Below are positions 10,654-63,518 of a stretch of 64,000 nucleotides of DNA, in pieces. Source of the stretch: a phage; the sequence record PZ445429.1. One strand, 5' to 3'. Positions within the stretch are counted from its first letter, which is position 1. Each line of letters begins with the position of its first letter. Under the pieces are notes generated by a model. The model saw only the letters and a list, made by a program, of their open reading frames with translations. It ran no database searches and was not told the DNA's origin. The translations under genes were made by a program, and so were the position numbers.

Positions 10654-10669
10654 TTTTTAAAAAATTCAT

Positions 10670-10698
10670 TTGCTAAACGCTTCAAAATTTCGTATAAT
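10670..10698 (+). promoter_or_regulatory. early promoter TTGCTA-N17-TATAAT
   Basis: AAAAATTCATTTGCTA ... CGTATAATAT. Confidence 0.65.
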
Positions 10699-10736
10699 AT
10701 ATCTCATAAATTGATCAACAAAAAGGAAAACAAATA

Positions 10737-47609: not shown

Positions 47610-48220
47610 TGTTTACACAACAAACCATTAAAGTAGTAGCAGATCATGAACTCGACACATGGGATTACAGCTTTAAAGATCTGACTGCTACAGTACAGTT
47701 TAAATCTATGCAACTGTCGTTTTTGCACACTGATCTTCAAGGTTGCAAGGAATTTCAGGCTAAGCTCATGAATGCTCGTGCTATCTTTGGCACGGCTCGT
47801 ATCCCGGCTGATAATCTGATTAATACACTAATCGATGCTGGATACAAACTCGTGAAGACTGAGGTGAATCGCCCTAGTACTCCAGTGACTATTCGGGATC
47901 CGTGGCAGTCAGGGCCAATCGCAATGCTGAATAATTCTGATAAAAGATTAATGTCGGATATGCACAATGTTCCTTGTGGTGGCGTGGTAAGCAATACGCA
48001 ATCATATAAGTTTGGGGAAGCATCTAGCGTAGACGAGTGGAATAAAGCTGGCGTTGCAATGATGGGCTTTGCAAAAGATCGCGGAGCACAAGAAGACTCC
48101 GGAGTTTCTAGGAACTCATACACAATTCGTTTGAGCAATCCTAGCAAAGAAGGTGAGCTTGAAGAAATGTTAACGAAAGTATTCGAAGCTATTGATGCAG
48201 ATAAGGCTAGAGGTCGTTAA
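47609..48220 (+). CDS. hypothetical protein (203 aa)
   Basis: coupled ORF. Confidence 0.5.
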   Translation: MFTQQTIKVVADHELDTWDYSFKDLTATVQFKSMQLSFLHTDLQGCKEFQAKLMNARAIFGTARIPADNLINTLIDAGYKLVKTEVNRPSTPVTIRDPWQSGPIAMLNNSDKRLMSDMHNVPCGGVVSNTQSYKFGEASSVDEWNKAGVAMMGFAKDRGAQEDSGVSRNSYTIRLSNPSKEGELEEMLTKVFEAIDADKARGR

Positions 48221-49110
48221 TGGGATTTTATAGTAATAGAAAGCCGAAAGGTGTAGTTGGTAAATTCGCGGTGGAAGAGAGACCTTTTCCACCGGTCGAT
48301 GTAGAGAAACTACGTGAACTTCTAGAAATGCTAGAAGGTTGCCATGAACGTTGTTACTCTGAGCTTTCTTTAAACGAGAAACGTGTTGTTGAGATGTTCT
48401 GTATTCGGTCAGCTAGAACAGTTAGAGGTACTTCTCCAAAAGATGAAGTAAAAGAGTACAGAGTTCTTGTGATGCATGCTTGGGCACAACGTTTTGCAGT
48501 TCATTCACTTCAGGAATGGTTTAATCTTCCAGCATATAAAGATTTCCATGTTTATGAAGATGAAGTTATGAATTATAATGAGTTGTACGGTTTGTCATTT
48601 AAAAAGACAGGCTCACCAATGCATGATGCACTCAACTCATTCCCTGATCATTATCTTCCAGTTCGTGAATACAGAGATCGTGAAGGAAATAAACCTTGCT
48701 TCACTATATGGAATAAGTCTAAGACAATATCTGATCTAGATAATTATTGGTTCCGCACAAAAGAAGGATTCCTAGGAACAGAACCTTTACCTAAGGATCT
48801 CAAGCCTATCCTTCCACCTGTGAAACCTAAGCATGAAGTAACGATTGCTATTAATAGAATAATTCTAGGAGCAGATGATCTTACCAAACAAATCGCCGCA
48901 GTTATTGCAGTTCTGTTTGAAGGTACAAAATCTTCTACACGTTATGAGAAGCTAACTGATAACAAATTGCAGATACCTAACGAGTTGTACGAGAGTTCAT
49001 GTAAGATCTATGATAACTTCAGTAAAGTAGATTACCCTGTGAGATCCCTAGGAGAACTCATGGAGTATGCGGAGATGGGGATGAAAGGAAACCTCATGTT
49101 CGATGAATAA
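48220..49110 (+). CDS. hypothetical protein (296 aa); last early-region gene before repeat field
   Basis: coupled ORF, ATGA overlap with previous. Confidence 0.5.
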   Translation: MGFYSNRKPKGVVGKFAVEERPFPPVDVEKLRELLEMLEGCHERCYSELSLNEKRVVEMFCIRSARTVRGTSPKDEVKEYRVLVMHAWAQRFAVHSLQEWFNLPAYKDFHVYEDEVMNYNELYGLSFKKTGSPMHDALNSFPDHYLPVREYRDREGNKPCFTIWNKSKTISDLDNYWFRTKEGFLGTEPLPKDLKPILPPVKPKHEVTIAINRIILGADDLTKQIAAVIAVLFEGTKSSTRYEKLTDNKLQIPNELYESSCKIYDNFSKVDYPVRSLGELMEYAEMGMKGNLMFDE

Positions 49111-49117
49111 ACTCTAC

Positions 49118-49146
49118 TTGACGTTATGATTTCTGCATGTTATAAT
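49118..49146 (+). promoter_or_regulatory. strong sigma70-type promoter TTGACG-N17-TATAAT with no ORF downstream
   Basis: near-consensus hexamers; next 1.5 kb has no credible ORF. Confidence 0.5.
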
Positions 49147-49505
49147 AACTCTATGAAATAACATAGAATAAAGAGATCCACCCGGATACGGATGGTGGAT
49201 GGGAAACTTCTATTTCCCCCGTAGCTCGTCGGAGGGCTAGGGAAATCTTCAGAAGTTTTGTACCATCTCACGCAATTCGTATCCCAGGGGTGGAACATCT
49301 CTCACAATCCTTGAGGATCTTATACTTAAATTAAAGTTAAAACTTTTGACCACATAATTCACATTCAAGATGATACACTTGTTGCCGCCGCTCTTCCTAG
49401 GATGGCACAACACTTTCTAGTAGACTCCTAAGTTTCTAGGAAAACCCTGTCGTATTTGCCCATGTTATAGGGCAGTTTCTCCTGTTCCTAGAAACTCCAG
49501 CAATA

Positions 49506-49577
49506 GGCGGTTTAATACAGGGCGGTTTAATACAGGGCGGTTTAATACAGGGCGGTTATGGGGAGGGCGGTTATTTC
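49506..49577. repeat. 15-bp tandem direct repeat GGGCGGTTTAATACA x3 plus degenerate copies
   Basis: three exact head-to-tail copies followed by GGGCGGTTATG and GGGAGGGCGGTTAT. Confidence 0.8.
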
Positions 49578-49615
49578 TAGACAACATTTTTCCAAAACAC
49601 ATTTCTGGATTTTAC

Positions 49616-50217
49616 TGTCGGATTTGCACACTATGTTTCTAGAAATTTATGGTCGGATTTGCACATTGATAGGAGTCTCCAAAGTTTTTAGGAACACTGA
49701 AAATAGCAGCATTATTTCGGGCCGAAGGCCCGTATTTGCCTGAGTTTTTAGAGCCACAGGAATTTTCACTTGTCAAGCGATTTTGCCCCATTTTGCTAAT
49801 AAAATTTCGCTTTATCTCCACTAATCTCAATTCTAGCCAAAACATCCCACATTATCCCCAAAAACGCAGCAAACCGGTGCTGAAGCACCACCACAGCTGC
49901 ACCCTCCATAGTTCCTCCAAAAAACCTCGTCGGATTCGCACTTCTCCCCAAACTCACACAATCATACACCCTCTCATCGAAGTCACAAAAATCTTGTCGG
50001 TTTTGCACACCTTAACACTTGTCGTATTTGCACATATTCTAGTAAATCCAGCTGGATTGCATCGCAGTTGTGGATTGCTGGAGTTTTTAGGAAAATTCAT
50101 TGTCGGATTCGCACATATAAAAAATATTTCCCATCGGATTTGCACACTACCAAAAATTGTCGGATTCGCACATGCACACTGGCACGTAATCCGTGGGGGC
50201 AAATGTCGGATTTGCAC
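49616..50217. repeat. iteron array: at least 9 dispersed copies of TGTCGGATT(T/C)GCACA
   Basis: copies near 49616, 49651, 49926, 49994, 50019, 50101, 50132, 50158, 50203, mostly same orientation, irregular spacing. Confidence 0.75.
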
Positions 50218-50259
50218 AAAAGCGCAGGGCAAAAATGAAAATGCCCTGCCTGCCGAAAT

Positions 50260-50440
50260 GCGAATGATAATGAGATTGATTAGCATTTGAGAAGTTGAAT
50301 GCGAATGAGAATGATTCGCGTTTAGAAAGAGGAATGAGAATGGTTATCATTTAGAAAGCGGAATGAGAACAGTTATCATTTATAGAGTTGAATGCGAATG
50401 AGTCGCATAATGAGAATGATTCGCGTTTAGAAATGGAAGT
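50260..50440. repeat. GAATGAGAATG-type direct repeat family
   Basis: TTGAATGCGAATGAG...AATGATTCGCGTTTAGAAA twice and GGAATGAGAA(T/C)(G/A)GTTATCATTTA twice. Confidence 0.7.
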
Positions 50441-50460
50441 GAGAAACACTGTTATTTAAG

Positions 50461-50543
50461 TTATCAACAGGTTTATTAACAGCACGATTTGACTTGACAA
50501 AATCCTAGCGATTTTGAGGCGTTATCAACAGACTTATTAACAG
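50461..50543. promoter_or_regulatory. cluster of four DnaA-box-like 9-mers
   Basis: TTATCAACA x2 and TTATTAACA x2 (1-2 mismatches to TTATCCACA). Confidence 0.4.
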
Positions 50544-50550
50544 GTTATTC

Positions 50551-50570
50551 TACTGTATAAATATACAGTA
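50551..50570. promoter_or_regulatory. LexA (SOS) box, near-consensus
   Basis: TACTGTATAAATATACAGTA (consensus TACTGTATATATATACAGTA, 1 mismatch). Confidence 0.55.
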
Positions 50571-50599
50571 TTCCTATACAGTGAATAATTCTAATATAG

Positions 50600-50630
50600 C
50601 TCTAAAACGCTCTGTAACGCATCCTAACGC
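50600..50630. repeat. 31-bp direct-repeat motif TCTAAAACGCTCTGTAACGCAT(C/T)CTAA(C/G)CGC, copy 1
   Basis: second copy at 54886-54916, both preceded by TTATTAACAGG. Confidence 0.6.
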
Positions 50631-50715
50631 GTTTATTTTTGGAGGAGGTATTTTAATAAGGGGAAATTTGTTTGCAGGCAGAAAAGGCGGGGCCGATAGT
50701 TGCGCCCCGTTATTA

Positions 50716-50955
50716 TTAGTCTGCTATGTATTCCTTCTCGTAGTCGTCAAAGATCTGGACGGTTTCGGCTGGCGTATATCCGTATGAATCAAAATGCGTA
50801 CATGTTGAAACTGAATTGATCCACGCCCCTAGCGCCGCCGTACTAGCTCCGCTTTTCTGCATTTCTAAAAATTGCGCATATTGCGCATCAGTTAAATGAT
50901 GCTGCATAATATCGGTTTCTTTACGTTCTACATATCGTAAAATTCTTACAGCCAT
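50716..50955 (-). CDS. pre-early cassette protein (79 aa)
   Basis: minus-strand ORF with RBS AGGAG; last gene of IR-bracketed cassette. Confidence 0.45.
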   Translation of the reverse strand: MAVRILRYVERKETDIMQHHLTDAQYAQFLEMQKSGASTAALGAWINSVSTCTHFDSYGYTPAETVQIFDDYEKEYIAD

Positions 50956-51078
50956 GCCATTGCTCCTAGAATGAGAATGATTATCAATATCATTGTAAAG
51001 CCATTACCAAATCGTAAACGCTGGGAATGTTTCCCAGCGGTATTATTAGATTTATGGCTTTGTGTTTTTCGCCACCAG

Positions 51079-51279
51079 CTATTCACGGTAAACGCTCCAA
51101 CCGTCTAGCTTCCATTCCTCCCCCTTGCGAATATTGAAAAACCAATCATTAAAATTGTAACCATCTTCCGACATGATCACGCCGTTTTCTTTCATGTACA
51201 AAAATTCATCGCTAGTAAAATATTGATTACTAACTTTGAAACCTTGTTTCATTTTTTCTAACGCTTCATCTTTAGTCAT
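51079..51279 (-). CDS. pre-early cassette protein (66 aa)
   Basis: minus-strand ORF, coupled to upstream gene. Confidence 0.45.
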   Translation of the reverse strand: MTKDEALEKMKQGFKVSNQYFTSDEFLYMKENGVIMSEDGYNFNDWFFNIRKGEEWKLDGWSVYRE

Positions 51280-51620
51280 TGCGCCACCTTTCGAAACGCT
51301 GTTTCGATACTTTCAGCGGTTGATTGAATATATGCGCCTTTCATAATCAGGCGCTCTGTACATACTTTGCGGAAAATGTCAATAAATTCATTTTCATTTT
51401 CTGCTACTAATGGCTCACCCATAACCTGTACATCACATGCGCCAAAAGTAAGAAACTGGAAGGCAAGCTCGCGAGCAACAACGGCATTAATCTTATAATG
51501 TGCTTTGCCTTCATAGATATTAACCACGCCTTTATAAACTGGTGAAAGCTGATTTAAATAGCTTGCTAATAATGCCGGACGGCAATTAGTAACAAAACGA
51601 TTACCCTCGTATATAACCAT
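51276..51620 (-). CDS. pre-early cassette protein (114 aa)
   Basis: minus-strand ORF with RBS. Confidence 0.5.
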   Translation of the reverse strand: MVIYEGNRFVTNCRPALLASYLNQLSPVYKGVVNIYEGKAHYKINAVVARELAFQFLTFGACDVQVMGEPLVAENENEFIDIFRKVCTERLIMKGAYIQSTAESIETAFRKVAQ

Positions 51621-51729
51621 TTGTCAAGCTCCTAAAGCTGGGAAAATATCAGGTACATTTTTAAAACAAATGCAGCGAATGAGCAAACAACGCCAACGGT
51701 AGCAAACGCTAGAGCAATATATAAGGATC

Positions 51730-51948
51730 TCATAATACCCCCCGAAAAGCAGCGTAAAAGGTGGCAAAGTGTTTAACCGTTTCGGCTACCAAATTTCCGC
51801 GCTTGTCAAATTTCTTTTCAGTAACACGAAACGCGTTTTTGTTGCGTGCTACATATTCGATTTTACAATCTGGACGCTCAAACGTGTTAACATCCACCAG
51901 CTTAAAACCTTTAGAACGGGCAAGGGAAACATTCTTTAACATTTGCAT
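51730..51948 (-). CDS. pre-early cassette protein (~72 aa)
   Basis: start set at ATG after RBS AGGAG (track ORF 51730-52035 overlaps neighbour). Confidence 0.4.
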   Translation of the reverse strand: MQMLKNVSLARSKGFKLVDVNTFERPDCKIEYVARNKNAFRVTEKKFDKRGNLVAETVKHFATFYAAFRGVL

Positions 51949-51995
51949 GACTCCTAGTAAGGGAATGAGGGGCGAAAGTAACGCCCCGTTATTAT

Positions 51996-52226
51996 TTACA
52001 TTAAAACAATTTTCGCCGCTTGCTTTTTGGTGCAATGTTCTGATTTCAACGTGTCCAGCAAAAATCCGGCGGTTTGCTGGTCAATCTTATCATTATCATA
52101 AAGCGCCTGAATGGTAACATAAGTTTTACCAATCCCAAATTCAGAAACCATCTGATCAATAATCCAGCGATTAGACACCCAACCTTTACCAGTGAAAAGA
52201 GAGTCAGAAGAAGAGAAAGCAACCAT
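51996..52226 (-). CDS. pre-early cassette protein (76 aa)
   Basis: minus-strand ORF with RBS GGAGG. Confidence 0.45.
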   Translation of the reverse strand: MVAFSSSDSLFTGKGWVSNRWIIDQMVSEFGIGKTYVTIQALYDNDKIDQQTAGFLLDTLKSEHCTKKQAAKIVLM

Positions 52227-52333
52227 TTTAACGCCTCCTAGAAATCAGGGAAAATTTTCAATCCACCGTTTCGGTGTAAAGGCATTATAACAAAAAAGGC
52301 CGCCGATTAAGGCGACCTTTACAAAACTTTACA

Positions 52334-52828
52334 TTAGACTATTTCTAATGCTTCCACGCCGAAACAGCGTTTTAGTTCTTTCTGTAAAACGGCATATTCA
52401 CCCCAACGGGAATTATCAGGAATATAAACAAGCTGTTTTAATCGATTTGCATATAATAACGCCTTGTTACCAACTATTTCCGCGCCACCGTGTTTAATAA
52501 TTAGTTTCATAACGGTATTAATAGGATCGCCGCCATTTACATAAGTACCGGACTTACTCAATTGATAATGATAAAGACTCGCATATACATTATCATTTTC
52601 AATCCATTCCCCTGTTTCTTCATTTTCTTCCCCATCGCTACCGAAACGAGAAGCATTATCATATGCGTGTTCGTTTGCGAAAGCGTCCAGATCACAGCCA
52701 GCGGGAACAAAATGTTCTTCCGTCCAGCCCTCCCCACAATAGCCAGTATGACAATCAACTAAAACGATCATATCGTGTTTAGCTTCATTCACACTTTCTA
52801 GCGAAAAGCCATATTTTTCTTCTGACAT
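52334..52828 (-). CDS. pre-early cassette acidic protein (164 aa)
   Basis: minus-strand ORF with RBS GGAGACTAATTATG. Confidence 0.5.
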   Translation of the reverse strand: MSEEKYGFSLESVNEAKHDMIVLVDCHTGYCGEGWTEEHFVPAGCDLDAFANEHAYDNASRFGSDGEENEETGEWIENDNVYASLYHYQLSKSGTYVNGGDPINTVMKLIIKHGGAEIVGNKALLYANRLKQLVYIPDNSRWGEYAVLQKELKRCFGVEALEIV

Positions 52829-52841
52829 AATTAGTCTCCTA

Positions 52842-53150
52842 TTAATTAGTAGGGAAATAAAGAGAATTTGCTACACCGTAAAATCCTTTATTCAAGAAAA
52901 TTACGTCATCACGGACTATTTCATCCATTCCATAATCCAGCAAAGTTTCATCTACAAAAATACATAGCCAGCCATAACCACGATCAAAGAAAGCATGATA
53001 ATTATTCGCGCTTTCTACATGTTCCCATAAAAAGGGACGCCCTTGCTTTTCCCATATAGGAATATTGCTTTGATCGTCCGAATAATTAACATGTGGGCTA
53101 TTCGGCATTTTTTCGGCTAATTGCGCTAACATGATTTGATTTAGTTGCAT
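52842..53150 (-). CDS. pre-early cassette protein (102 aa)
   Basis: minus-strand ORF with RBS AGGAGACTAG. Confidence 0.5.
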   Translation of the reverse strand: MQLNQIMLAQLAEKMPNSPHVNYSDDQSNIPIWEKQGRPFLWEHVESANNYHAFFDRGYGWLCIFVDETLLDYGMDEIVRDDVIFLNKGFYGVANSLYFPTN

Positions 53151-53188
53151 AATAACTAGTCTCCTAACAATTAACAGGGAAATAGTAA

Positions 53189-53208
53189 AGCGGGGAATAA
53201 TCCCCGCT
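53189..53208. terminator. palindrome AGCGGGGAATAATCCCCGCT (family of three) downstream of minus-strand gene
   Basis: perfect GC-rich inverted repeat after stop of 53217-54212. Confidence 0.5.
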
Positions 53209-53216
53209 AGTAATTA

Positions 53217-54212
53217 TTACTCTGTTTCGGCGCTTTGAGTAAAGGTAGAAATGTCAATGCCTTTTACCATTTCATCGATCATTTCCGCAATGTTGAAACT
53301 CTGTACCATTTCCAACATTGCCGCTTCCATTGCCGCGCCTGCTACCGCTTTAGCTTTCGCATTAGTCGGGGCGTACTGGTCAACCGCTACGCTTAACAGG
53401 TTAGCGATCACTACGCGACCGATCGGCGTATCGATATAACCTTTAATCATAAACGGCGCTTTTTTCGCCGCTACTTTTGTGATTTGAATCAGTGCAATTT
53501 TACCCGCTTCCAATTTAGCAGCGTTTACAACGGCGGATTTATTAGCGGCAACGATAGAAGATACTTTAGACATAATATTTCCTTTATTTTCAGTAGTTTG
53601 CGCATTTGCGCTTGAAGTTTGAGATTGTACAGCCTGTTTTGTTACATTGTCAAGCGGTAAAAGTGTAAATCCAGCGTTTGCAACGTTTGATTCATTCCCA
53701 TACTCTAAATAATCGTTAGGGATCAACATGTTACCGCTAGCGCGTTCAAAACACAATACGCCAGTTGTTTCGATTGCGTCACTATCAGCACCTTTATAAC
53801 TGGATGATAATTCACGCCAGATACTAGATAGTAAATCTTCTACATCGCTGGAATTAATACCATTTACGCGAGTAGCGAAAACCATTTCTTTTTCTTGTAC
53901 ATTGTAACCACGGGCAATATAGCTTTTTTCGTCGTGACCTACAATGATAAAATCAATATCGCTTCCCCGCTGATTTCGCATGATGTGATAGTCACGGTTG
54001 TAAAGCACTAGAACGCGGGTAGGGTCTAGTAATTGTGTGAAATCACTTAAACAATAATGAGTATCATTATTATCTAAAATTTCATCGTGAATCTTTTCGA
54101 TAATAGTAGCCGTATGTTGTACGCTTGCCGCACTACTACCATCTAGCAGGTTGCGCAAACTACCCTTAATAATAGTGGCGTTTGCTGGTACTGCAATTCT
54201 TACAGTAGACAT
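53217..54212 (-). CDS. pre-early cassette protein (331 aa), first gene of minus-strand operon
   Basis: RBS GAGGGGGACAAAGAAATG; palindromic terminator downstream at 53189-53208. Confidence 0.55.
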   Translation of the reverse strand: MSTVRIAVPANATIIKGSLRNLLDGSSAASVQHTATIIEKIHDEILDNNDTHYCLSDFTQLLDPTRVLVLYNRDYHIMRNQRGSDIDFIIVGHDEKSYIARGYNVQEKEMVFATRVNGINSSDVEDLLSSIWRELSSSYKGADSDAIETTGVLCFERASGNMLIPNDYLEYGNESNVANAGFTLLPLDNVTKQAVQSQTSSANAQTTENKGNIMSKVSSIVAANKSAVVNAAKLEAGKIALIQITKVAAKKAPFMIKGYIDTPIGRVVIANLLSVAVDQYAPTNAKAKAVAGAAMEAAMLEMVQSFNIAEMIDEMVKGIDISTFTQSAETE

Positions 54213-54460
54213 TTCTTTGTCCCCCTCGTTAATCGGTGAGTGAATGATATAGATAATTGTTCGCTAGGGGCAAGAAAAAAGAAAAGGTTTTTTATTCCTT
54301 GCCTACTGCCTGTTTTTATGATAGCCGCGCGTTTTCTATTTCTAGCTCTCTGTATGCGTACACAAGGCTTTATTATAATAAGGGTAGCAGCGAGAAAACC
54401 GTTTAGAATGCGTTCTAGGCCGCTTAAATTTGATTGCGGTTGTTACTGCTACCATTCTAC

Positions 54461-54480
54461 CCTGTATATTTATACAGTAG
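54461..54480. promoter_or_regulatory. LexA (SOS) box
   Basis: CCTGTATATTTATACAGTAG, CTGT-N8-ACAG core; ~250 bp upstream of minus-strand operon start 54212. Confidence 0.5.
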
Positions 54481-54487
54481 GATAACC

Positions 54488-54569
54488 TGTGAATAAGTCT
54501 GTGGATAAGTCGCCAAAACGTCGCCTATTGCGTCAAGTTATTTTGTGCTGTGGATAACTTTGTGAATAA
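54488..54569. promoter_or_regulatory. cluster of four DnaA-box-like 9-mers
   Basis: TGTGGATAA x2 (perfect complement of TTATCCACA) and TGTGAATAA x2. Confidence 0.5.
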
Positions 54570-54885
54570 CCTAAATGATAGTGGTTCTCACTTAGCCGAT
54601 AGTTTCTTATAGTTATTATTTCTCTTTAATTTATAAGTATATAATATAATATGAAATAGTTAGTTGGCTAATAGGTTTTTAGAGTATTAATAGTCTGCTA
54701 ACTGTTTCGGCTGTTACAATCCACCAGCGTGATTATTATCCTAGCGATTGTTAGTATGCTAACCAATCAATGCACGTCTAAACTTATTTGTCAATGAAAA
54801 ATAACAGCAGAAAATACTTTTTTGAAAAATCAAGTGGATAACTCATTAAATTTCATTTTTGCTTTTTGTATAAGTTATTAACAGG

Positions 54886-54916
54886 GTCTAAAACGCTCTG
54901 TAACGCATTCTAAGCG
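54886..54916. repeat. 31-bp direct-repeat motif, copy 2
   Basis: see copy 1. Confidence 0.6.
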
Positions 54917-55303
54917 CCTCAAAGGAAAAGATAGGCAATCATAAGGGGTACACCGAGAAAACCTCACCACGAGGATTTTAGATTTTGTCAAGTACCCTAG
55001 AGCAGATATAAATGAAAAAATTACTTGCTAAAATGGTTGTTTTGGTGTTATTCGCGCGCCCGTTTCATTAAATTTAGTGCGCCGCTGGACGTGGTGCGGT
55101 GGCGTTTGTCTTTACGTTTCTTTACAAAAATACGCTTGCGCCATTTTCGGGAATAACCTATTATTTATCTCGTAGGACGGCAAGACGGAAACGAAAGGCC
55201 AGACTACAACGGCGGGGAAGTTTACCGCCATGCTCTTTAAAAACTAGGGAACATCTTAAAGCCTATCGGCGGTAAACTTATATAATATAAGGAATCGACG
55301 ATA

Positions 55304-55522
55304 ATGATCAAATCAAAAAACGCTTTAGTGATTAGTGCGAAACCTGCTAGCGCATTAGATAGCAGAACAAAAAATTTGTTGACAGTAGCGCAAAGATCTG
55401 TAAAATACAGATTCAAGCAATACAAGAAAGGCAAGCAACAAGGGCTGGAAATGGTGTGGCGTAATATAATGATTGATTTATATAACTCACATCAAATCGA
55501 AAAAAGTTTAAAAAACGCTTGA
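55304..55522 (+). CDS. small basic protein (72 aa)
   Basis: RBS AAGGAATCGACGATAATG. Confidence 0.4.
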   Translation: MIKSKNALVISAKPASALDSRTKNLLTVAQRSVKYRFKQYKKGKQQGLEMVWRNIMIDLYNSHQIEKSLKNA

Positions 55523-55686
55523 CACGCTAGCCGATAGGTTTTAAGATGTTCCCCGTAGTAACTGCTCTTTAAAAATTTGGATAACGGTAATGTTTAGGCT
55601 AACTCCTAGCGGATTATAATCTAATAGCGTTTCAAAGTATCGAGGCGCTATTGTGGAATAATCCCCAATAAACCGGAGTATTAAAA

Positions 55687-55938
55687 ATGCAAAACGTTAT
55701 TACCGCGCCGAAAGTAGGTCAATCTGTTTTCATTCCTTTTGTAACTAAAACTGATGAATTAACCGGAAAAGCCGAACGTATCAAAGGTGCGGCGCTTGAT
55801 CCTTTCGATAAAATCGAAGCGGTTTACGCGGAAACGGAACGTAGCAACAACGGCAAGCCGATTTATACCGTCCGTGTTAAATCTGGCGACGTTGTAAAGG
55901 TCATTCAGAAAGATGATAAATGGCAAGCTATCGCCTAA
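55687..55938 (+). CDS. hypothetical protein (83 aa)
   Basis: RBS ACCGGAGTATTAAAAATG. Confidence 0.45.
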   Translation: MQNVITAPKVGQSVFIPFVTKTDELTGKAERIKGAALDPFDKIEAVYAETERSNNGKPIYTVRVKSGDVVKVIQKDDKWQAIA

Positions 55939-56163
55939 TAGCTTATTATTAACCCGCGCCTTTAATCGGCGTAAATAAATAAGGCTAGCGCCTCATGTTA
56001 GATTTTCGATATATTAACCATGTAGTGTGAACAATGTTATGGCACACAATTTAAACTTATATGATTAGTGTTACTTTTATATTCCCCTGAAATATGGGGA
56101 ATATATGGATTAACATTAGTTAATCATAATCCCTTAATTAATAATTGAATGGAGTATTAAATT

Positions 56164-56580
56164 ATGTCTAACGTTAAAACCGAAAAAACCGCAAAATTTT
56201 CTTGGAACGAAGAAAACACCGAAAAAGCTGTTTCTATGTATTCTGAAATGGTCGCTAAAAGCGGGATTGAATTTGCAAACAGTGACGGCCTGAAAGAAAT
56301 TGCCGCCGCCGTTGGTGCTGCTAGTCCGGTGTCTGTACGTTCTAAATTGACCAGTGCAAAAGCCTACCAGAAAAGCGACAAGCCGCGTAAAGTTGGCGGC
56401 GGGTCTAGTGTCCGTAAAGCTCACTATGTGCGCGTCATTGCTAAACATGCCATTGATAGCGGCATTGTAAAAGACGCTGACGATCTGGCAAGTCTGGAAA
56501 GTGCAAAACTTGAAACGCTGGAAGCCGTGGCGCAATTGTTAGGCGTAGCGGAGGAAGTGAAACAGGCCGCAGGTGAATAA
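56164..56580 (+). CDS. hypothetical protein (138 aa)
   Basis: RBS GGAGTATTAAATTATG; palindrome terminator 56590-56609. Confidence 0.5.
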   Translation: MSNVKTEKTAKFSWNEENTEKAVSMYSEMVAKSGIEFANSDGLKEIAAAVGAASPVSVRSKLTSAKAYQKSDKPRKVGGGSSVRKAHYVRVIAKHAIDSGIVKDADDLASLESAKLETLEAVAQLLGVAEEVKQAAGE

Positions 56581-56589
56581 ATTTTAATT

Positions 56590-56609
56590 AGCGGGGAATA
56601 TTCCCCGCT
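56590..56609. terminator. palindrome AGCGGGGAATATTCCCCGCT
   Basis: 10 bp after stop of 56164-56580. Confidence 0.5.
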
Positions 56610-56638
56610 ATAATTTCCCTTTGACCGGAGTTATTAAA

Positions 56639-56866
56639 ATGATTTTCTTTCCTAGTGAAGCGTTTATTTTAGGTTTATTTATAGTTGCCGCTATATTTAT
56701 ATTTAATTACGGCAAATATATAATCTCTATTATCGGCATTAATTCAGCTTATGCCGCTGATATGTTTAAACGTCAAGCTAATAAACAAAAATATCTGGCG
56801 ATTATATTTTTAACGCTGGCTATTAGTTGCGGGTTTAGTTCTAGTCTTATGCCAATTCTAGAATAA
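56639..56866 (+). CDS. small membrane protein (75 aa)
   Basis: ATG 56639 after RBS CCGGAGTTATTAAAATG; two TM helices. Confidence 0.4.
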   Translation: MIFFPSEAFILGLFIVAAIFIFNYGKYIISIIGINSAYAADMFKRQANKQKYLAIIFLTLAISCGFSSSLMPILE

Positions 56867-56974
56867 TATTGCAAATTATAACGCCTTTTAAATTGTCCTC
56901 ACTTCAGGCAAGGCGTTATATTTGGCAATATTGCCAGTATTAATATTTATCCCTTTATAGGAGTTGATTTAGTT

Positions 56975-58639
56975 ATGAATATTTCCGCAGAAAAACAAGC
57001 TCAAATTCTGAAAATGGCCGCAGATTTTAACTTCTACGGTAAGCGTTTACGCGCTACTAAATTGGAAGTTTGCGACGATATTTCAAAAGCTGTTTATGAT
57101 ACGCCGAAACATTCAACCGCAATTTGTGACTGGCTGGAAGCAAATAAGCCAGCGAAACCGAAAGCGGCAAAAGCTGAAAAGGCGATTAAAAATGATGATC
57201 GCCCCGAAGCGGCGGGAATTGTTTCTAGTACCGTTGAACAATGGGAAGTTAAATCCGGTCGCCGTTTTATTCTAACGTCGATTCAAAATAATACTTTCCC
57301 GCATAAAAACTTTTTAGCAAGTCTGGAAAAATTCGCTGAATATTGCGGCGCTGAATTGCTGATTAGTAAATTCATTTATAATAAAAATGGATTCCAGAAC
57401 GGGGAAGGGGCAAACGGTATTAAATACGATCCCGCATTTGATAAATATGTTTGTGATAAAAACGTATTTTTAAATAACCGCCGCTTTGCTTTCATGGCTG
57501 AAATTAACGTTTTACCAACGGCAGATTATCCGCTTTCAGGATTCGCAGAAACCGCCACGGCTTTAAATATCGAAGGTCTGGCAATTGGTCACGCAAAAAT
57601 TACCGCTGAAAGTGTTCCCGCGCTTAAAGGTGAAGTAGTGCGCCGTATGTATTCAACCGGAACGGCTACGCTTAAAAACTACATTCAGCAGAAAGCAGGT
57701 CAAAAAGCTGAGGCTTTACATAATTACGGCGCTTTGCTGGTGGAGTTCGACGACGACGGAGAATTTTATTGCCGCCAGCTTGAAACAATGGATGAAAGCG
57801 GAATGTTCTATGATTTGAATGTTTGCGCTATGCCTACCGGATGTTTTGAAACGTCCGATCATGTTCTAGGCTTGCAATATGGCGATATTCACGCCGAAAA
57901 ACTAGATGATGATTGCGCCGTCGCTTCATGGGCTAGTGAAAACAGCTTGCTTGATATTCTTAAACCGAAATATCAATTTATTCATGATGTGCATGATTTT
58001 ACATCCCGCAATCACCATAACCGCGCAAGTGGTGTATTCCTTGCTAAACAATACGCCGCCGGACGTGATAAAGTTATTGATGATCTTATCGATACGGGTC
58101 GCGTATTAGAGTCTATGGAGCGTGATTTCTCTCAAACAATCATTGTGGAATCTAACCATGATTTAGCTCTTTCACGCTGGCTTGATGATCGTAACGCTAA
58201 CATTAAAGATGATCCCGCAAACGCGGAATTGTATCACCGTCTAAACGCTGCGATTTACGCCGCTATTGCTGAAAAGGATGATACCTTTAACGTGCTAGAT
58301 TACGCCTTGCGGAACGTCGCAGGTTGTGAATTTAACGCTATTTTCCTGACTACTGACCAATCATTTAAAATCGCTGGCATTGAATGCGGCGTACATGGTC
58401 ACAATGGCATTAACGGCAGTCGGGGCAATCCTAAGCAGTTTAAAAAGTTGGGACGCCTTAACACTGGTCACACTCACACGGCTAGCATTTACGGCGGCGT
58501 TTATACCGCTGGCGTTGCTGGTAGTCTCGATATGGGTTACAACGTTGGCGCGTCAAGCTGGACGCAAACGCATTTAATTACATATGCAAACGGTCAACGT
58601 ACCTTGATTGATTTCAAAAATGGCAAATTCTTTGCCTAA
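56975..58639 (+). CDS. A1: A1-like pre-early protein with calcineurin-type metallophosphoesterase/nuclease motifs
   Basis: 554 aa (T5 A1 is ~556 aa); GDIHAEKLD, ESNHDL, GHNG, GHTHTA motifs; followed by A2-like and dmp-like genes. Confidence 0.55.
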   Translation: MNISAEKQAQILKMAADFNFYGKRLRATKLEVCDDISKAVYDTPKHSTAICDWLEANKPAKPKAAKAEKAIKNDDRPEAAGIVSSTVEQWEVKSGRRFILTSIQNNTFPHKNFLASLEKFAEYCGAELLISKFIYNKNGFQNGEGANGIKYDPAFDKYVCDKNVFLNNRRFAFMAEINVLPTADYPLSGFAETATALNIEGLAIGHAKITAESVPALKGEVVRRMYSTGTATLKNYIQQKAGQKAEALHNYGALLVEFDDDGEFYCRQLETMDESGMFYDLNVCAMPTGCFETSDHVLGLQYGDIHAEKLDDDCAVASWASENSLLDILKPKYQFIHDVHDFTSRNHHNRASGVFLAKQYAAGRDKVIDDLIDTGRVLESMERDFSQTIIVESNHDLALSRWLDDRNANIKDDPANAELYHRLNAAIYAAIAEKDDTFNVLDYALRNVAGCEFNAIFLTTDQSFKIAGIECGVHGHNGINGSRGNPKQFKKLGRLNTGHTHTASIYGGVYTAGVAGSLDMGYNVGASSWTQTHLITYANGQRTLIDFKNGKFFA

Positions 58640-58651
58640 TTAAATTTAATC

Positions 58652-58671
58652 AGCGGGGAATATTCCCCGCT
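58652..58671. terminator. palindrome AGCGGGGAATATTCCCCGCT
   Basis: 13 bp after stop of A1-like gene. Confidence 0.5.
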
Positions 58672-58714
58672 TATATTCCCGAAAAAGTTAATTAAATAAT
58701 CTGGAGTTTTAAAC

Positions 58715-59107
58715 ATGAAAAACCAAAACATTCCTTTTGATCGCGCTACTTCTTCCATCGTTCTAGTTTATTCTAATGGCGAGCGTTATCACGTTGAATC
58801 GGGTCATATTATTGATGAACTGCTAGACTTTAACGAGGCGCTACAGGTAACAACATTTGCATATATTACCGGTAAAGCGTCAAGCCATACAAAAGCAAAA
58901 GGCGTTTATATTGATACCGTAAAAGAGCAAACTGTTATTATTGACGCTGTAAAATCAGGTCTAGCGTTTGCAGTTGTCGCGCCATGCCCCGCTTGCCTTG
59001 ATAATGCTCTTATGTCTGCAAAGGTCTACACTTGCGCGGGGATTCGTTCCAGCGTATCAGGTGAGGATATTAGTTTTATCGCTGATGCTCTTGCTTTTGG
59101 TCTTTAA
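58715..59107 (+). CDS. A2-like pre-early protein (130 aa)
   Basis: size and position downstream of A1-like gene; hairpin terminator 59121-59147. Confidence 0.3.
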   Translation: MKNQNIPFDRATSSIVLVYSNGERYHVESGHIIDELLDFNEALQVTTFAYITGKASSHTKAKGVYIDTVKEQTVIIDAVKSGLAFAVVAPCPACLDNALMSAKVYTCAGIRSSVSGEDISFIADALAFGL

Positions 59108-59120
59108 TAGCTAACTTATT

Positions 59121-59147
59121 ATTGCCCGCTTATAAATAGCGGGCAAT
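59121..59147 (+). terminator. hairpin terminator after A2-like gene
   Basis: ATTGCCCGCT-TATAAAT-AGCGGGCAAT. Confidence 0.55.
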
Positions 59148-59186
59148 GCTGAATTAACTATACCCTTAAATGGAGAACGTAACAAA

Positions 59187-59921
59187 ATGAATCAAGTTAA
59201 AATGAATATTACCCATAATTTCCCGCATATTTCCCGCGTCATGATTTGGGATCTGGACGGCACAATCATTAATTCTTTCCATCGTGTAGCGCCTTGCTTT
59301 GATGATAACGGGAATTTAAATTTAAATAAGTATTCCCGCGAAGCCTGTAAACATGAATTAATTATGCAGGATTCTTTATTGCCGTTGGTTGAATATATGC
59401 GCCAATGTATGAGTGACGCAAATACATTAAACATTATTTGTACCGCTCGCCTTATGTCTAAAAGCGATTATTTTTATTTACGCAAACAAGGCCTGCGAGG
59501 GCGCGGAAATAGTAATATCCGCGTATTTTCCCGCGATACACTGCATAAATACTTTGAAGCTGATAAGGTTAGCGAAATATACCACAGCAAAGACGCTGTA
59601 TACAAAAGCTATTACTTTGAACTATTTAAACAGCTATATCCGAACGCTGATTTTACGATGATTGATGATCATAAAGGCGTATTATCGGCGGCGGCAAGTG
59701 CTGGGTTCAAAACACTGGACGCCCAAGCCGTTAACGATATCCTATCAATCGGCGTAGCATTGATCGGTGAAACCTTTATTGATGAATCGTTAGATGATGA
59801 TAATGATTATCAATTCCTAGCCGAACGTTTAAAAATGTGTTGGGAAGGTATGACCGAGGAAGAACGCGCGGAATATAGTACCACACCGCAACAATTCATT
59901 GATAAATTAAAAGTTGCATAA
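59187..59921 (+). CDS. dmp: HAD-family 5'-deoxyribonucleotidase (dmp-like)
   Basis: 244 aa; HAD motif I MIWDLDGTIINS; later DD motif. Confidence 0.55.
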   Translation: MNQVKMNITHNFPHISRVMIWDLDGTIINSFHRVAPCFDDNGNLNLNKYSREACKHELIMQDSLLPLVEYMRQCMSDANTLNIICTARLMSKSDYFYLRKQGLRGRGNSNIRVFSRDTLHKYFEADKVSEIYHSKDAVYKSYYFELFKQLYPNADFTMIDDHKGVLSAAASAGFKTLDAQAVNDILSIGVALIGETFIDESLDDDNDYQFLAERLKMCWEGMTEEERAEYSTTPQQFIDKLKVA

Positions 59922-59938
59922 CAATTAAAAATAAAATA

Positions 59939-59976
59939 GTTTCATCCTGTAATTAAAAAATGGTTACAGGATGAAA
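59939..59976. terminator. bidirectional hairpin between dmp-like (+) and HNH (-)
   Basis: TTTCATCCTGTAA-TTAAAAAATGG-TTACAGGATGAAA. Confidence 0.6.
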
Positions 59977-60094
59977 CAGTTAGCATGGTAATAGTAACAC
60001 AGGGGGATTATTAGACTACTAACTATCCCCAGTCCCACTGAGCACATCTGCATGTGTAATCTTATGAAATTTCAAGATTTTCAAATTAGCGCTA

Positions 60095-60568
60095 TTAACC
60101 GTGGTTTGTGAACTCACCACATACTTTCTCACGTGCTTCCCTTATCGCACTTTCAGCTTCCTCAAGACTCTCGAAATAGGCCGAGATAAAATATTTGCCT
60201 TGGTGTCTACCGCGTGCTCTCCACTTCTTACGAGTGTTATCCCAGTATACTCCCTTAACTCCCGAGATATTGTTCTTAGATAGACGCTGATTCGCTAAGT
60301 TCTGCTCATGTGATGCTTTACGAAGATTATTCTTTCTATTATCTAGTCCCTCACAGTTTTTATGGTCTATGAGAGATTCTCCGGGATCTTCTCCGTAGAT
60401 GCACCACCAAGCTAGGCGATGCACTCTAAACTCTCCGAACTGTGGGTGACGATATATGAGATAACCTTCACTTTCCTTAGTATATCCTATAATAGGCAGG
60501 AATCGCCCCGTATCTGGATCGTATGAAAAACTACCAGCTATTTCATCAGGGATTTTCTTAAATATCAT
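60095..60568 (-). CDS. HNH homing endonuclease
   Basis: HRLAWWCIYGEDPGESLIDHKNCEGLDNRKNNLR ... GVKGVYW, paralogous to the 15403 HNH. Confidence 0.7.
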   Translation of the reverse strand: MIFKKIPDEIAGSFSYDPDTGRFLPIIGYTKESEGYLIYRHPQFGEFRVHRLAWWCIYGEDPGESLIDHKNCEGLDNRKNNLRKASHEQNLANQRLSKNNISGVKGVYWDNTRKKWRARGRHQGKYFISAYFESLEEAESAIREAREKVCGEFTNHG

Positions 60569-60810
60569 GAACTTCTCCTATCTACTGGCTTATCTCCCGA
60601 TTCTGACATACGAAACCTCCTCCGCGACGCCCGAGATCCATCAGACCATTCTCGCTCAAACTCCGCACGTTTCTCCGCAAACTTCCGCTCTCTTTCCGAA
60701 AGCTCTCGCGATACTCCCGCAATATATTCACGATGCTTATTAATCGCCCCGAGTGTTCCGAAGATTCCCGCAAGTACCCCGATAATGAAGATAGCTACAA
60801 AACTAAACAT
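60565..60810 (-). CDS. small membrane protein (81 aa)
   Basis: N-terminal TM helix, basic tail. Confidence 0.4.
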   Translation of the reverse strand: MFSFVAIFIIGVLAGIFGTLGAINKHREYIAGVSRELSERERKFAEKRAEFEREWSDGSRASRRRFRMSESGDKPVDRRSS

Positions 60811-60913
60811 TACTTGTCTCCACGCAGCTTACGTTCGATACGAGCTAAGTGGTTATCTAAGATGCACTGCCCTATAATTACCACAACTAGTAAAGCAATA
60901 ATTACTACTTCCA

Positions 60914-61099
60914 TTATAACCACCCCGCCATAGCTGCTAACCAAAAGAGTACAAAGATAAAGAATAACACAGTCCCGAATCCGAAACTATTTATCCAACT
61001 TTCGTACACTTCCCCGCGTCTGTTCTTTCTTCTGTTGTCGTCTGACATCTCTTTGCTTCTCCTGTAGTCTTGGTATTTGGAATACCATAGCAATTGCAT
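60914..61099 (-). CDS. small membrane protein (61 aa)
   Basis: C-terminal TM helix. Confidence 0.35.
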   Translation of the reverse strand: MQLLWYSKYQDYRRSKEMSDDNRRKNRRGEVYESWINSFGFGTVLFFIFVLFWLAAMAGWL

Positions 61100-61376
61100 G
61101 AACCATTATGACTGTCCCGATAAGATCCATTACTTCGTCGAAGCCGGATTCTTCTAGTAAGAAGGATGTTCCATCACGTCTTCTACTGTATCTTCTATGA
61201 CATCTTGAATGATTTCATCAATTGCATCATGTATTGCTTTTTATTCCTGGGATTTATTTCAAAGTTAACAGGTTCCTGAAAGGACTTTTCTTCATCTTGC
61301 ATTGTGTTTGCTACCTGTACCTCATCCCAGAAATAAAAATTTTTGTTTACTTCGAGATCTTTTTACTTTATACTAA

Positions 61377-61643
61377 TTACAAGTGACCAGATTGTTCTAG
61401 TTTAAATTTGCAATCACCATATTTGAGATCAAACTGTGACAAATCCCACCACCCAAACTTAGTGCGTAACTGAGTTTTAGGGAATCGGTAGCCCACAGTA
61501 CGTGCTTCTCTAATATCTAAAGCGTAGTGTTCTTCACCAACATGTCCATAAGACTTCACGTATGCCTTACAGAATGGCTCGGGAGCTGGTACACAACCAG
61601 TCAACACTACTGCTGCAACTACGATAGCTAGTAACTTTTTCAT
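61377..61643 (-). CDS. llp: Llp-like lipoprotein (receptor-blocking lytic-conversion lipoprotein, putative)
   Basis: 88 aa, signal peptide with lipobox LTGC; divergent from adjacent receptor-binding protein gene as for T5 llp/oad. Confidence 0.5.
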   Translation of the reverse strand: MKKLLAIVVAAVVLTGCVPAPEPFCKAYVKSYGHVGEEHYALDIREARTVGYRFPKTQLRTKFGWWDLSQFDLKYGDCKFKLEQSGHL

Positions 61644-61726
61644 AATCGTTCCTCTGTTTAATTTATAAATATATTATAGCAAAATAGAGGGATTTAAGCA
61701 AATACATTTTTAAAGAAGGAGATTGT

Positions 61727-63508
61727 ATGAGTTTTTTCGCAGGAAAATTTAGTGATGGTAAAACTGTATTATCTCTAAACGCTGCTAATGGTGGTGATAC
61801 TGGTGAGCACTATTCTCCAAATACTAATAGTATCTTCCACTCCGATATGCCTTTCGTCCTGGTTGATGGGACTTATGAAGCAGCCCTAGGTAATGCAGGT
61901 AATGGATACTTTGTTACTCAGATGCCTTGGGATATTATAAATATTAAATCCAATGATCCAGGTAGAGTTATATTAACTGCTATTGAGATAAACGGTACTC
62001 ATAGAGGATTCCTCAATGGTACTCAATCTCAGGTTGGCCAGTTCTTATCATTTTTTGAAGACCCACCACGTGCTGGTGCTGAATTATCTGTAACATCTGC
62101 TTTTGCGATCGGGGATAGTTTAGCTCATGGTACTTATATCTATAATGGTGGTCTTGGTCATGAGGAATCTATTGCTAGGCAAGGTTCTGGAGGCAGTTTA
62201 CTACAGTCCTCTGGTTTCCAGATCTTTAGACCTGGTGGTGTTCCTGCTGGTGAAGCCATTGCCAGAGCCTGGAGTCTTATGGGTTTTCCAACTGGTGTCT
62301 CTACTGTTCCTTTAAATGGTGGTAACGCTGATTATTGGGATCCTAACTGGCAGGCGCCTATTGGTTCTGCTGGTAGAGGCCATGATTGGTTTTATGTTTG
62401 TAGTTCTAATATTCGTGGCTTCGCAGGTAAAAAAGGCGTACTACCAGATAACGTAAACATTAACTACCAATCCCCCTCCTTTCCTACTAAAGTATACGTT
62501 TGCAGGGGTTCTACAACTAATATGGCTGCGCAAGCCACTAGAAAGGTATATGTACAGGACTGGTACAACGTTACGCCAACTAAGGTTATTTGGTATGTAC
62601 TAAATCTGCGCTATTCTAATGGTAGTATGGGAGTTTCTGGTAATCCATTTACCGGTTCAGATATCTTAATATCTCCATCTAACTTTACTATTAAAGGTGT
62701 TAGCCTACCAAATACAGGCTATAAATTTATTAACCAGAATGCTTTCGGAAACTTAGGCTATCGCCCTGATATGGAGTATGTTGGTAATAACGCTGCGTAT
62801 ACCGGAGTTTTTGGTGATAATACTGCACGATGTGAATTTATCGGCTCTAGTAATGGCGGATTGTGGTCTCCTGTTAACTATGGGGGTGCAGCTTCTCAAA
62901 TTAGCTTATATAAATTTGGTGTAGGTAAACAATGGTATGTAGATACTAATACCAACTCCATTGGTAATGAACATGGACCTGTATGGAGTCCTAGTACTGT
63001 ACCCCTCAGGTTATTCCCAGGCAACGTTGCAAGTACTTATGTAGGGGATGATATAACTCCATCCTACCCTGGTGCTGGTGACTTCTACACACCTTTGGCC
63101 ACAGTTTGGTTGGGATTACCAAATGCTCACTCTACTGTTATATTAACTACTGAAGTTATTATGGGTAATCTTAATACTGCTGGAATGCCCGTGCGTACTT
63201 ATGGTGGTAGTGCTTGGCAGGTACAAGGTAGACGTCAACAAAGTTATACAGCTGGTGATGGTGTATTCCATCAGATTCTTACTCTGCCACCTGGCTATCT
63301 AGTACCATATCACAGTACAACTTCCTATAGCTATACCCAAACGTGGGCTAGTAGGCCTGATGAGTTTGCTTTCCGTAGGAACGGATATATTTATACTATT
63401 AAAAACCTTGGTAATGGCAACGTTGAATTGGGTGTTATCATTCACGCTGCGGAAGCGGCGGCTGTTTTCTTGCCAAGACTACGTGTAACAGTTCAACGCC
63501 TAACCTAA
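61727..63508 (+). CDS. receptor-binding tail protein (pb5/Oad-like, putative)
   Basis: 593 aa Gly/Asn/Ser/Thr/Tyr-rich beta-type protein adjacent to llp-like gene; RBS AAGGAG. Confidence 0.45.
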
Positions 63509-63518
63509 AGGAGGATAT

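Follow-up and report, generated by a model that had tools for sequence, protein, structure and literature searches.

A conserved promoter and a predicted rod-shaped RNA beside the long terminal repeat of T5-like phages

The pRNA of phage phi29 (RF00044), ~120-174 nt long, is transcribed from a host-polymerase promoter by a gene beside the genome end, and its structure is kept while its sequence becomes almost unrecognisable between relatives. Adenovirus VA RNA I and 6S RNA (RF00013) are largely double-stranded rods of ~160-185 nt with a conserved shape and an unconserved sequence; both are strongly expressed and act by occupying PKR and the sigma-70 holoenzyme, respectively. Packaging in phages T7 and T3 requires that transcription proceed from phiOR towards the concatemer junction and that the polymerase pause there.

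The locus described here lies in the window, a stretch of 64,000 nt of phage DNA (PZ445429.1), and it resembles each of these systems in part. The likeness to phi29 pRNA, VA RNA, and 6S RNA is confined to the size and to a conserved shape with free sequence; phi29 pRNA has a three-way junction and ring-forming loops, whereas the RNA candidate of the window is a single rod with no match in Rfam. Unlike phi29, T5 has a conventional two-subunit terminase with no known RNA requirement, and a pRNA-like packaging role here is pure speculation. 6S RNA has a large central bubble, which the rods of this locus lack, and they do not match its Rfam family. T7 and T3 phiOR are alike in geometry only, namely a promoter in unique DNA firing at the terminal repeat, and a hairpin or pause at the junction that gives rise to the ends. 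In T7, the polymerase is the phage's own, the repeat measures 160 bp, and the promoter is on the other side of the repeat, whereas the promoter in the window is one for the host polymerase. A strong promoter, a folded RNA with a G-run, and downstream iterons with DnaA-box-like repeats also recall ColE1 RNA II, T4 oriF/oriG, and T7 phi1.1A/B. Unlike the locus of such origin or primer transcripts, however, the T5 origins have been mapped near the genome centre (Davison), which weakens the idea of a replication origin, and no persistent-hybrid or DNA-unwinding element was identified at the locus.

In T5 itself, a classical model phage, the corresponding stretch of 1662 bp is non-coding and contains 97 stop codons; earlier work placed in it the injection stop signal, palindromes, direct repeats, and DnaA boxes (Heusterspreute 1987; Wang 2005; Davison 2015, 2020). 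This untranslated region of 1.6 kb has been studied since 1987 only as DNA. It is the same region as 'Repeat Region 3' or the injection stop region of T5, and the iterons and GTCGGATTTGCACA boxes of the window are the direct repeats A and D described there. The repeats described in T5 stop at 10409, and the promoter and rod fall in the remaining 447 bp beside ORF018 (10409-10856), a stretch with no feature in either T5 record and absent from Davison's discussion. Since the promoter and the rod are outside the first-step-transfer DNA, they are not part of the injection stop. A strictly conserved promoter and a predicted structured RNA would be a new player in the one uncharacterised part of the region.

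Layout of the locus and its promoter

The window is from a T5-like phage; its plus strand, which carries 28 tRNA genes, is equivalent to the minus strand in the standard map of T5. A megablast search with 49000-50700 matched 468 phage records, essentially all T5-like (Demerecviridae), with 94-96% identity for the best. The features of the locus are as follows:

48220-49110, plus strand: homologue of T5.018/ORF018, 296 aa, last gene of the leftmost early operon (from the ORF list and PHROG 8583)
49118-49146, plus strand: sigma-70 promoter, with -35 hexamer TTGACG (49118-49123), 17-nt spacer, and -10 hexamer TATAAT (49141-49146) (from sequence and conservation)
49153-49171, plus strand: predicted transcript start A49153 and unpaired 5' leader (read from the sequence)
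49172-49302, plus strand: long rod-like hairpin of 131 nt with 53 pairs, hypervariable cassette of type A (fold prediction)
49307-49349, plus strand: small hairpin AUCC-UUGA-GGAU (49307-49318) with an A/U-rich tail, a weak candidate for the 3' end (fold)
49364-49500: DNA block starting TTCAAGATGATACAC (alignment of 49 distinct sequences)
49506-49580: 15-nt tandem direct repeats GGCGGTTTAATACAG, three full and two degenerate copies (repeat family D3)
49617-49665: two copies of GTCGGATTTGCACA, T5 direct repeat D, nearly invariant (repeat families D2 and D4)
49719-49750, plus strand: hairpin GGGCC-GAA-GGCCC (49719-49731), followed by GTATTTGCCTGAGTTTTTA up to the repeat boundary (alignment)
49750|49751: inner boundary of the long terminal repeat (homology to five annotated genomes)

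The product of 48220-49110 matches PHROG 8583 (E = 1.6e-122) and is 43% identical to T5 ORF018 over ~195 residues; a Pfam search with it gave no match, and the neighbouring proteins are without informative domains. This gene stops at 49110, with its stop codon 7 nt before the -35 hexamer. The next credible gene past the promoter, the first pre-early gene, is on the opposite strand and has its stop at 50716, and the stretch from 49111 to this stop is the counterpart of the T5 1662-bp region (AY587007 9194-10856). The repeat junction ...TGAGTTTTTA|GA(G/T)CCACAG is identical in T5, Sw2 (PhageTerm), SIY1lw, Shivani, and Spc35. Since the boundaries in these five genomes fall right after TGAGTTTTTA, that of the window is placed at 49750|49751. 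The terminal repeat spans 49751 to ~60046, its outer end having been located from the homologous start of the right repeat in T5. Past ~60046 the window enters the right end of the unique region, so that unique right end, repeat, and unique left end follow one another, and therefore the window shows a concatemer-like junction. The promoter is in unique DNA, at a distance of ~630 bp from the left terminal repeat, to which it points; its location at the early/pre-early boundary had been rightly given in the original prediction.

The same prediction counted TTGACG-N17-TATAAT among the strongest promoters of the window. The site indeed scores 11/12 against the consensus, tied for the best in a scan of 45-55 kb, and has an extended -10 element with TG at 49138-49139. 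The pattern TTGA[CT]N-N16-18-TA[TC]AAT is found at only five sites in the whole 64 kb, that at 49118 included; at least three of the four others are followed within ~25 nt by a Shine-Dalgarno-like GGAG and then a gene, whereas the 49118 site is without GGAG. Its discriminator is also without the ATATT motif that has been reported for known T5 early promoters.

Conservation was followed through 58 T5-like loci drawn from GenBank phages, IMG/VR, and metagenomes by means of an invariant downstream DNA anchor; six further matches in these collections, chance matches of the anchor without a promoter, were dropped from the set. An IMG/VR search anchored on the protein of the upstream gene had given one locus, since this gene is too variable, and the DNA anchor was used instead. 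The promoter is at the same place in 58 of the 58 loci. The -35 hexamer is TTGAC(A/G), or TTGCAT in a subset, TGTTAT(A/C)AT is invariant, and the spacer of 17-18 nt varies in sequence between lineages while the hexamers are kept. With such conservation, a promoter by chance is excluded. In T5, it reads TTGACA-N17-TATCAT (AY587007 10799-10771, complementary strand), with a predicted start at ~10764. In Klebsiella phage Spivey (genus Sugarlandvirus), TTGACA...TGTTATAAT-AATCTCATAGATTA comes after an intrinsic terminator that closes the upstream gene, and therefore the unit is independent of the upstream operon, at least in Spivey. The Sugarlandvirus version matches ~59 Klebsiella phage records.

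Judged by sequence and conservation, 49118-49146 is a genuine promoter for the host sigma-70 RNA polymerase, and the predicted unit behind it is conserved across Tequintavirus, Epseptimavirus, and Sugarlandvirus. The inspected records (T5 twice, Sw2, Stitch, SIY1lw, AKFV33, Seabear, and others) have no promoter or RNA annotated at the locus, and the searchable literature, including T5 transcriptomes and small RNAs, gave nothing on it, be it RNA-seq, Northern, or primer extension.

The predicted rod hairpin and its cassette types

Transcription from this promoter would start at A49153, a position predicted from the usual -10 to +1 spacing, 7 nt past the -10 hexamer. The leader carries AUAGAAU at 49163-49169, a motif (AUAGAWU) that occurs near the 5' end in all cassette types. 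The sequence behind it was predicted to fold into a single rod at 49172-49302 with -67.9 kcal/mol (z = -5.78; 0 of 200 shuffles fold as well). The minimum-energy fold of this rod is also its centroid fold, and in both CCACCCGGATACG pairs with CGTATCCCAGGGGTGG ~100 nt away. The rod was not detected in a gapless inverted-repeat search because of its bulges. Stable hairpins had been expected in the first 350 nt, which holds, but the one cited as an example, CCACCCGGATACGGATGGTGG, although able to form locally, is a minor alternative fold inside the 131-nt rod.

The 200 nt of 49111-49310 match just 37 of ~440 T5-like records, all at least 96.5% identical. Among these relatives of the same type, the cassette is 96.5-99% identical, against 94.5-99.6% for the adjoining coding gene and mostly 76-93% for other non-coding stretches. 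In T5, Stitch, DT57C, and Spc35, the same slot is filled by sequence unrelated to that of the window. Overall, the first ~185 nt after the promoter cluster into five types without mutual alignment, or at least eight when the sub-types of D are counted:

Type A: the window, Sw2, AKFV33
Type B: T5
Type C: Stitch, chee24
Type D: DT57C, NBEco001
Type E: Spc35, saus176N

Type D consists of four sub-types with a common stem base and differing apical parts of ~60 nt. Together, the eight cassette sequences match 437 phage records, apparently all T5-like; several hundred sequenced members of this group carry the unit, among them many therapy candidates.

Each of the types A-E and each sub-type of D is predicted to fold into one long irregular hairpin of ~100-145 nt, with energies of -56 to -68 kcal/mol and, for the five main types, z of -4.8 to -6.9 against dinucleotide shuffles. 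The upstream gene diverged too: its protein is 43% identical between types A and B and barely detectable as related between A and C, and in other types an unrelated or barely related gene or a homing endonuclease takes its place. Since the neighbouring gene diverged in parallel, the cassette types are not recent insertions; gene and cassette are inherited as one module. By this comparison, the types look like the outcome of a deep divergence that kept the promoter, the AUAGAWU leader motif, the rod shape, and a G-run on the 3' side and scrambled everything else.

Within types, paired columns vary far less than unpaired columns. Changes at paired positions comprise nine that are compensatory, nine to G-U, two from wobble to Watson-Crick, one to A-C, and six mismatches. 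In type B, with 61 pairs and eight distinct sequences, 99.8% of the cells are paired, against 30-41% with the partners slid; three pairs changed on both sides, and eight of the nine variable paired columns keep pairing. As these compensatory changes trace to essentially one split and diversity within types is low, they represent few independent events. Covariation is also plain in the small leader hairpin found in types C, D, and E and in Spivey (AAAACAA/UUGUUUU, ACAAUAA/UUAUUGU, CAACUA/UAGUUG, UACAUA/UAUGUA). RNAalifold, applied to a mixed alignment of types C and D whose variable apex MAFFT cannot align, gave a consensus with neither the rod nor the leader hairpin. The structural argument is therefore built on folds predicted for each type and on the counts within types.

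As to coding potential, the first AUG after the promoter is followed by one codon and a stop, with no ribosome-binding site, and every ORF listed from 49147 to 50715 falls within repeats or within the hairpin. A comparison of ORFs across the cassette types found none conserved. The claim that ~1.5 kb behind the promoter is free of a credible ORF is thus borne out as far as 50715.

Several known elements were also compared with the cassettes. An Rfam scan of 48000-52000 in the window returned nothing in 49100-49760 at E up to 10, and a scan of seven loci with the seven other cassette types or sub-types returned nothing in the cassette at E up to 1; the covariance models of 6S RNA, pRNA, SRP RNA, Y RNA, and put do not match any type. 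A host origin, or a palindromic element of the ERIC or MITE kind, was rejected when the eight cassette types had no match in 5,426 complete E. coli genomes. An antisense RNA was likewise set aside, the complementary matches in the 64-kb window being 9-11 nt long, the best of them 11 nt with E = 2.2, which is the level of chance.

From the rod to the repeat boundary

Behind the rod lies a small hairpin or an equivalent motif, of a form that differs between types. The equivalents of 49307-49318 are a GGGGGAUCUUAUA motif in types B and C and in other members of type A, and CUCUCAUGAAAUGGGGG with a U-rich tail in types D and E, where the hairpin depends on G-U pairs. A clear hairpin with a U-run follows the rod in sub-type D3 only; types D and E have a weak G-U hairpin with the U-rich tail. 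The consensus terminator scan called none at 49307-49349 in the window, where the hairpin has 4 bp only. Since a convincing intrinsic terminator after the rod is lacking in the window's type, a discrete small RNA is not assured.

The DNA that follows is conserved in blocks. In the block at 49364-49500, whose anchor motif is exact in all T5-like loci, the first ~75 bp (to ~49440) are kept in every relative, including CTAGGATGGCACAACACTTTCT and GTTTCTAGGAAA, and the remainder is variable. The tandem repeats at 49506-49580, the 'iteron field' of the original prediction, are direct repeat A in the T5 annotation. More copies of GTCGGATTTGCACA are present inside the terminal repeat. In the alignment of 49 distinct sequences, the near-invariant blocks are TTCAAGATGATACAC..GTTGCCGC, CTAGGATGGCACAACACTTTCT, the iteron core GGGCGGTTAT, and the two GTCGGATTTGCACA boxes; the most invariant of all is a block of ~100 bp that starts with GAAAATAGCAGC at ~49700 and crosses the repeat boundary.

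The hairpin GGGCC-GAA-GGCCC is located in this last block. In Sw2, a plus-strand terminator is annotated 14-33 nt ahead of the repeat boundary, which matches it in aligned position, and in Spivey a hairpin of another sequence occupies this position before TTTTTTAG|AGCCACAGG. GGGCC-GAA-GGCCC is separated from TTTTT by 12-14 nt; because of the gap of 11-14 nt to the T-run the boundary hairpin is not a canonical terminator, and the consensus terminator scan did not flag it. From its sequence, 49719-49750 may be either a terminator-like or pause element for the plus-strand transcript or part of the site at which ends are generated. A transcript of ~600 nt from the promoter would finish at the exact nucleotide where the repeat ends. 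The unit is aimed at that nucleotide, and its study could link transcription with the making of ends or uncover a new class of phage RNA.

The likely product and the alternatives

The locus looks like a conserved, promoter-driven gene for a structured RNA, so far undescribed, in a classical phage family, and annotations of T5-like genomes would be missing a conserved gene. The expectation of a non-coding transcript from this promoter, or of transcription into the iterons, finds comparative support in the promoter at 58 of 58 loci, the shared rod, the pairing kept within it, and the absence of a conserved ORF. The best explanation, to which a probability of about 60% is given, is that the sigma-70 promoter heads an independent non-coding unit in T5-like phages and that its product is a structured RNA acting by its shape. 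The product would be ~170-190 nt long, with a short AUAGAWU leader, a rod of ~100-145 nt, a small G-rich hairpin, and an A/U-rich tail. Given the weak terminator behind the rod, some transcription probably continues for ~430 nt across the conserved blocks and the iterons to the boundary hairpin.

The shape is kept through complete sequence turnover and no complementary target was found, which suggests that the RNA is recognised by shape. It may serve as a platform resembling double-stranded RNA that binds a protein, is processed by it, or acts as its decoy, rather than pairing with a target, and a shape-dependent protein partner appears to be the most likely mode of action. RNase III would be the obvious host candidate for processing such a duplex. 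That the unit helps to make the 10-kb terminal repeats or to start packaging, with the transcript pausing at the boundary and marking or opening the site for the terminase or for repeat copying, is an unlikely reading; it would be a host-polymerase counterpart of the transcription-coupled concatemer processing of T7, or a cofactor similar to phi29 pRNA working with a conventional terminase. Of similar likelihood is that the rod is a fast-evolving decoy RNA against an RNA-sensing or RNase-based defence of the host. If the RNA proves dispensable and inert, the finding shrinks to a correction of annotation.

The main alternative, itself unlikely, is that the act of transcription matters and not the RNA. 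The polymerase would cross the blocks, the iterons, and the GTCGGATTTGCACA boxes up to the boundary hairpin, and thereby assist in forming or duplicating the end of the repeat or guide the terminase to it, with the rod as an accessory co-transcriptional element. The aim of the unit at the boundary fits this well, as the hairpin and T-run stop exactly at a junction identical in five genomes, the junction region is the most invariant stretch, and the Spivey hairpin keeps the position with another sequence. The window has no good intervening terminator and is itself arranged like a concatemer. However, a rod of 130 nt kept through complete sequence turnover is left unexplained, and the boundary hairpin is non-canonical as a terminator in its distance from the T-run. 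A literature search for the T5 terminase site or for a link between transcription and packaging found nothing. T5 uses the host polymerase, and no contact of this polymerase with the terminase is known, which also speaks against such a role.

Returning to the shape-acting RNA, its rod could instead work as DNA, namely as an imperfect inverted repeat that forms a cruciform or a single-strand hairpin, with the promoter incidental or aiding extrusion. It might then be a signal for priming or primosome assembly, a recombination site, or a fold-back primer for repeat copying as proposed for T7. The position beside the repeat boundary suits such roles, compensatory Watson-Crick changes suit DNA equally with RNA, and both strands of the rod in the window beat their shuffles (minus strand, -61.1 kcal/mol, z = -4.04). 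The plus strand, however, folds better than the minus strand by 6-12 kcal/mol in all five types of Markadamsvirinae, single changes within types go to G-U and to A-C in a ratio of 9 to 1, the 3' hairpin requires G-U pairs, and a strictly conserved promoter is directly upstream in every genome. An origin-like role would also sit far from the centrally placed T5 origins (Davison). The rod of Spivey differs in being shorter and weaker (z = -2.9), with a minus-strand fold slightly more stable than that of the plus strand; therefore the strand asymmetry is not universal, and a hairpin at the DNA level keeps some probability. In the predicted folds, G-U pairs outnumber A-C 1x1 mismatches by 39 to 0, a count that was dropped as a strong argument because minus-strand folds contain G-U pairs too. 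On balance, it is quite probable that the rod acts at the RNA level, and action as DNA is considered quite unlikely.

It is also very doubtful that the rod is a 3' processing or stabilising element of the upstream early operon in the style of the RNase III hairpins of T7 early mRNAs. In that case, transcripts reading through from the operon promoter (46841) would finish in the rod, and the local promoter would be of secondary importance. The stop codon and the -35 hexamer of the window are just 7 nt apart, with no terminator between them, and therefore operon transcripts must enter the cassette; the common inheritance of gene and cassette agrees with such an arrangement. On the other hand, the intrinsic terminator of Spivey stands between gene and promoter, and no element is better conserved than the promoter, whereas the upstream gene gets replaced in other types. 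A small protein encoded behind the promoter or on the opposite strand is highly improbable. Every type contains ORFs of 25-64 codons, and a few depositors marked small hypothetical genes in the surroundings. No ORF, however, has the same strand, position, or length in different types, and lengths differ even among members of one type; AKFV33 has a broken version of the 52-codon minus-strand ORF of type A. Nor is the promoter followed by a ribosome-binding site or a usable first AUG.

Further into the terminal repeat, reading of the sequence revealed a terminator-like hairpin on the minus strand near 50680-50712, which corresponds in position to an annotated terminator of T5. Pre-early transcription from the opposite direction appears to halt at this hairpin, and antisense interplay with the unit would therefore need extensive read-through.

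Terminal repeat layout and the junction across genera

The long terminal repeat is present in the window once, in full. The left unique region borders it on one side, and homologues of T5 ORF148-151 follow on the other:

49751-60046: long terminal repeat, one complete copy, ~10.3 kb
60047-64000: T5 ORF148-151 homologues, belonging to the unique region's right end

Since one copy of the repeat lies between left-unique and right-unique DNA, the source record is circularly permuted or collapsed, and it resembles a concatemer junction. The record closest to the window in the megablast match list is MG065642, which is unannotated and labelled 'Campylobacter phage A148', and a few T5-like records carry Listeria or Staphylococcus phage labels; host names of this kind look doubtful on enterobacterial Demerecviridae.

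About 80 records of Klebsiella phages (Sugarlandvirus) match the T5-like phages at the junction, the inner end of the repeat at 49750/49751, on its repeat-internal side alone (TTTTTAG/AGCCACAGGAATTTT..., with the slash at the junction), as in this pair:

49745-49817 of the window: stretch with the shared repeat-internal junction side, compared with 1440-1520 of Klebsiella phage Spivey

The hairpin just outside the repeat has a different sequence in Sugarlandvirus from that in T5-like phages, but it occupies the same position. Together, the shared repeat-internal side and the common hairpin position suggest that an end-generating signal is conserved across genera.

Apparent nick site and tandem repeats inside the terminal repeat

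Two further features lie inside the repeat:

50216-50228: CACAAAAGCGCAGGGC, with GCGC at 50222-50225; its counterpart in compared locus L014 is at position 1764
50234-50458: a unit of ~29-35 nt (AATGAGAATGATTCGCGTTTAGAAA...) present six times, in tandem or with overlap

Judged by position relative to the annotated T5 nick, CACAAAAGCGCAGGGC appears to be the counterpart of the major single-strand nick of T5 at 7.9%. In phage Seabear, the annotated PhageTerm prediction puts the terminal repeat boundary precisely between AAAA and GCGC, and this is probably the nick mistaken for a genome end. The annotated boundaries of chee24 and saus176N are likewise at odds with the conserved junction. The AATGAGAATGATTCGCGTTTAGAAA units are located near the expected injection-stop region and probably represent the counterpart of direct repeats C of T5; they are separate from the promoter and its candidate hairpin RNA.

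Gene content upstream of the promoter and elsewhere

In cassette types C, D, and E, a barely related protein of 243 aa replaces the product of the T5.018-slot gene, the gene just upstream of the promoter. The type D phages DT57C, NBEco001, Lindwurm, and Sds2 (L020, L024, L026, and L027) carry an additional 357-bp gene between this slot and the promoter; it is labelled hypothetical in Sds2, whereas the other three records name it a homing or putative endonuclease.

Two other genes in the window were observed:

51082-51279 (-): 66-aa pre-early protein with a weak Pfam match to a Thoeris anti-defence Tad2-like domain (E = 0.005; sub-threshold, at 17.8 bits where the cut-off is 25)
15923-15996 (+): tRNA with anticodon TCA, one of the phage's 28 tRNAs and called 'tRNA-SeC' by ARAGORN; possibly a suppressor-type tRNA that reads UGA
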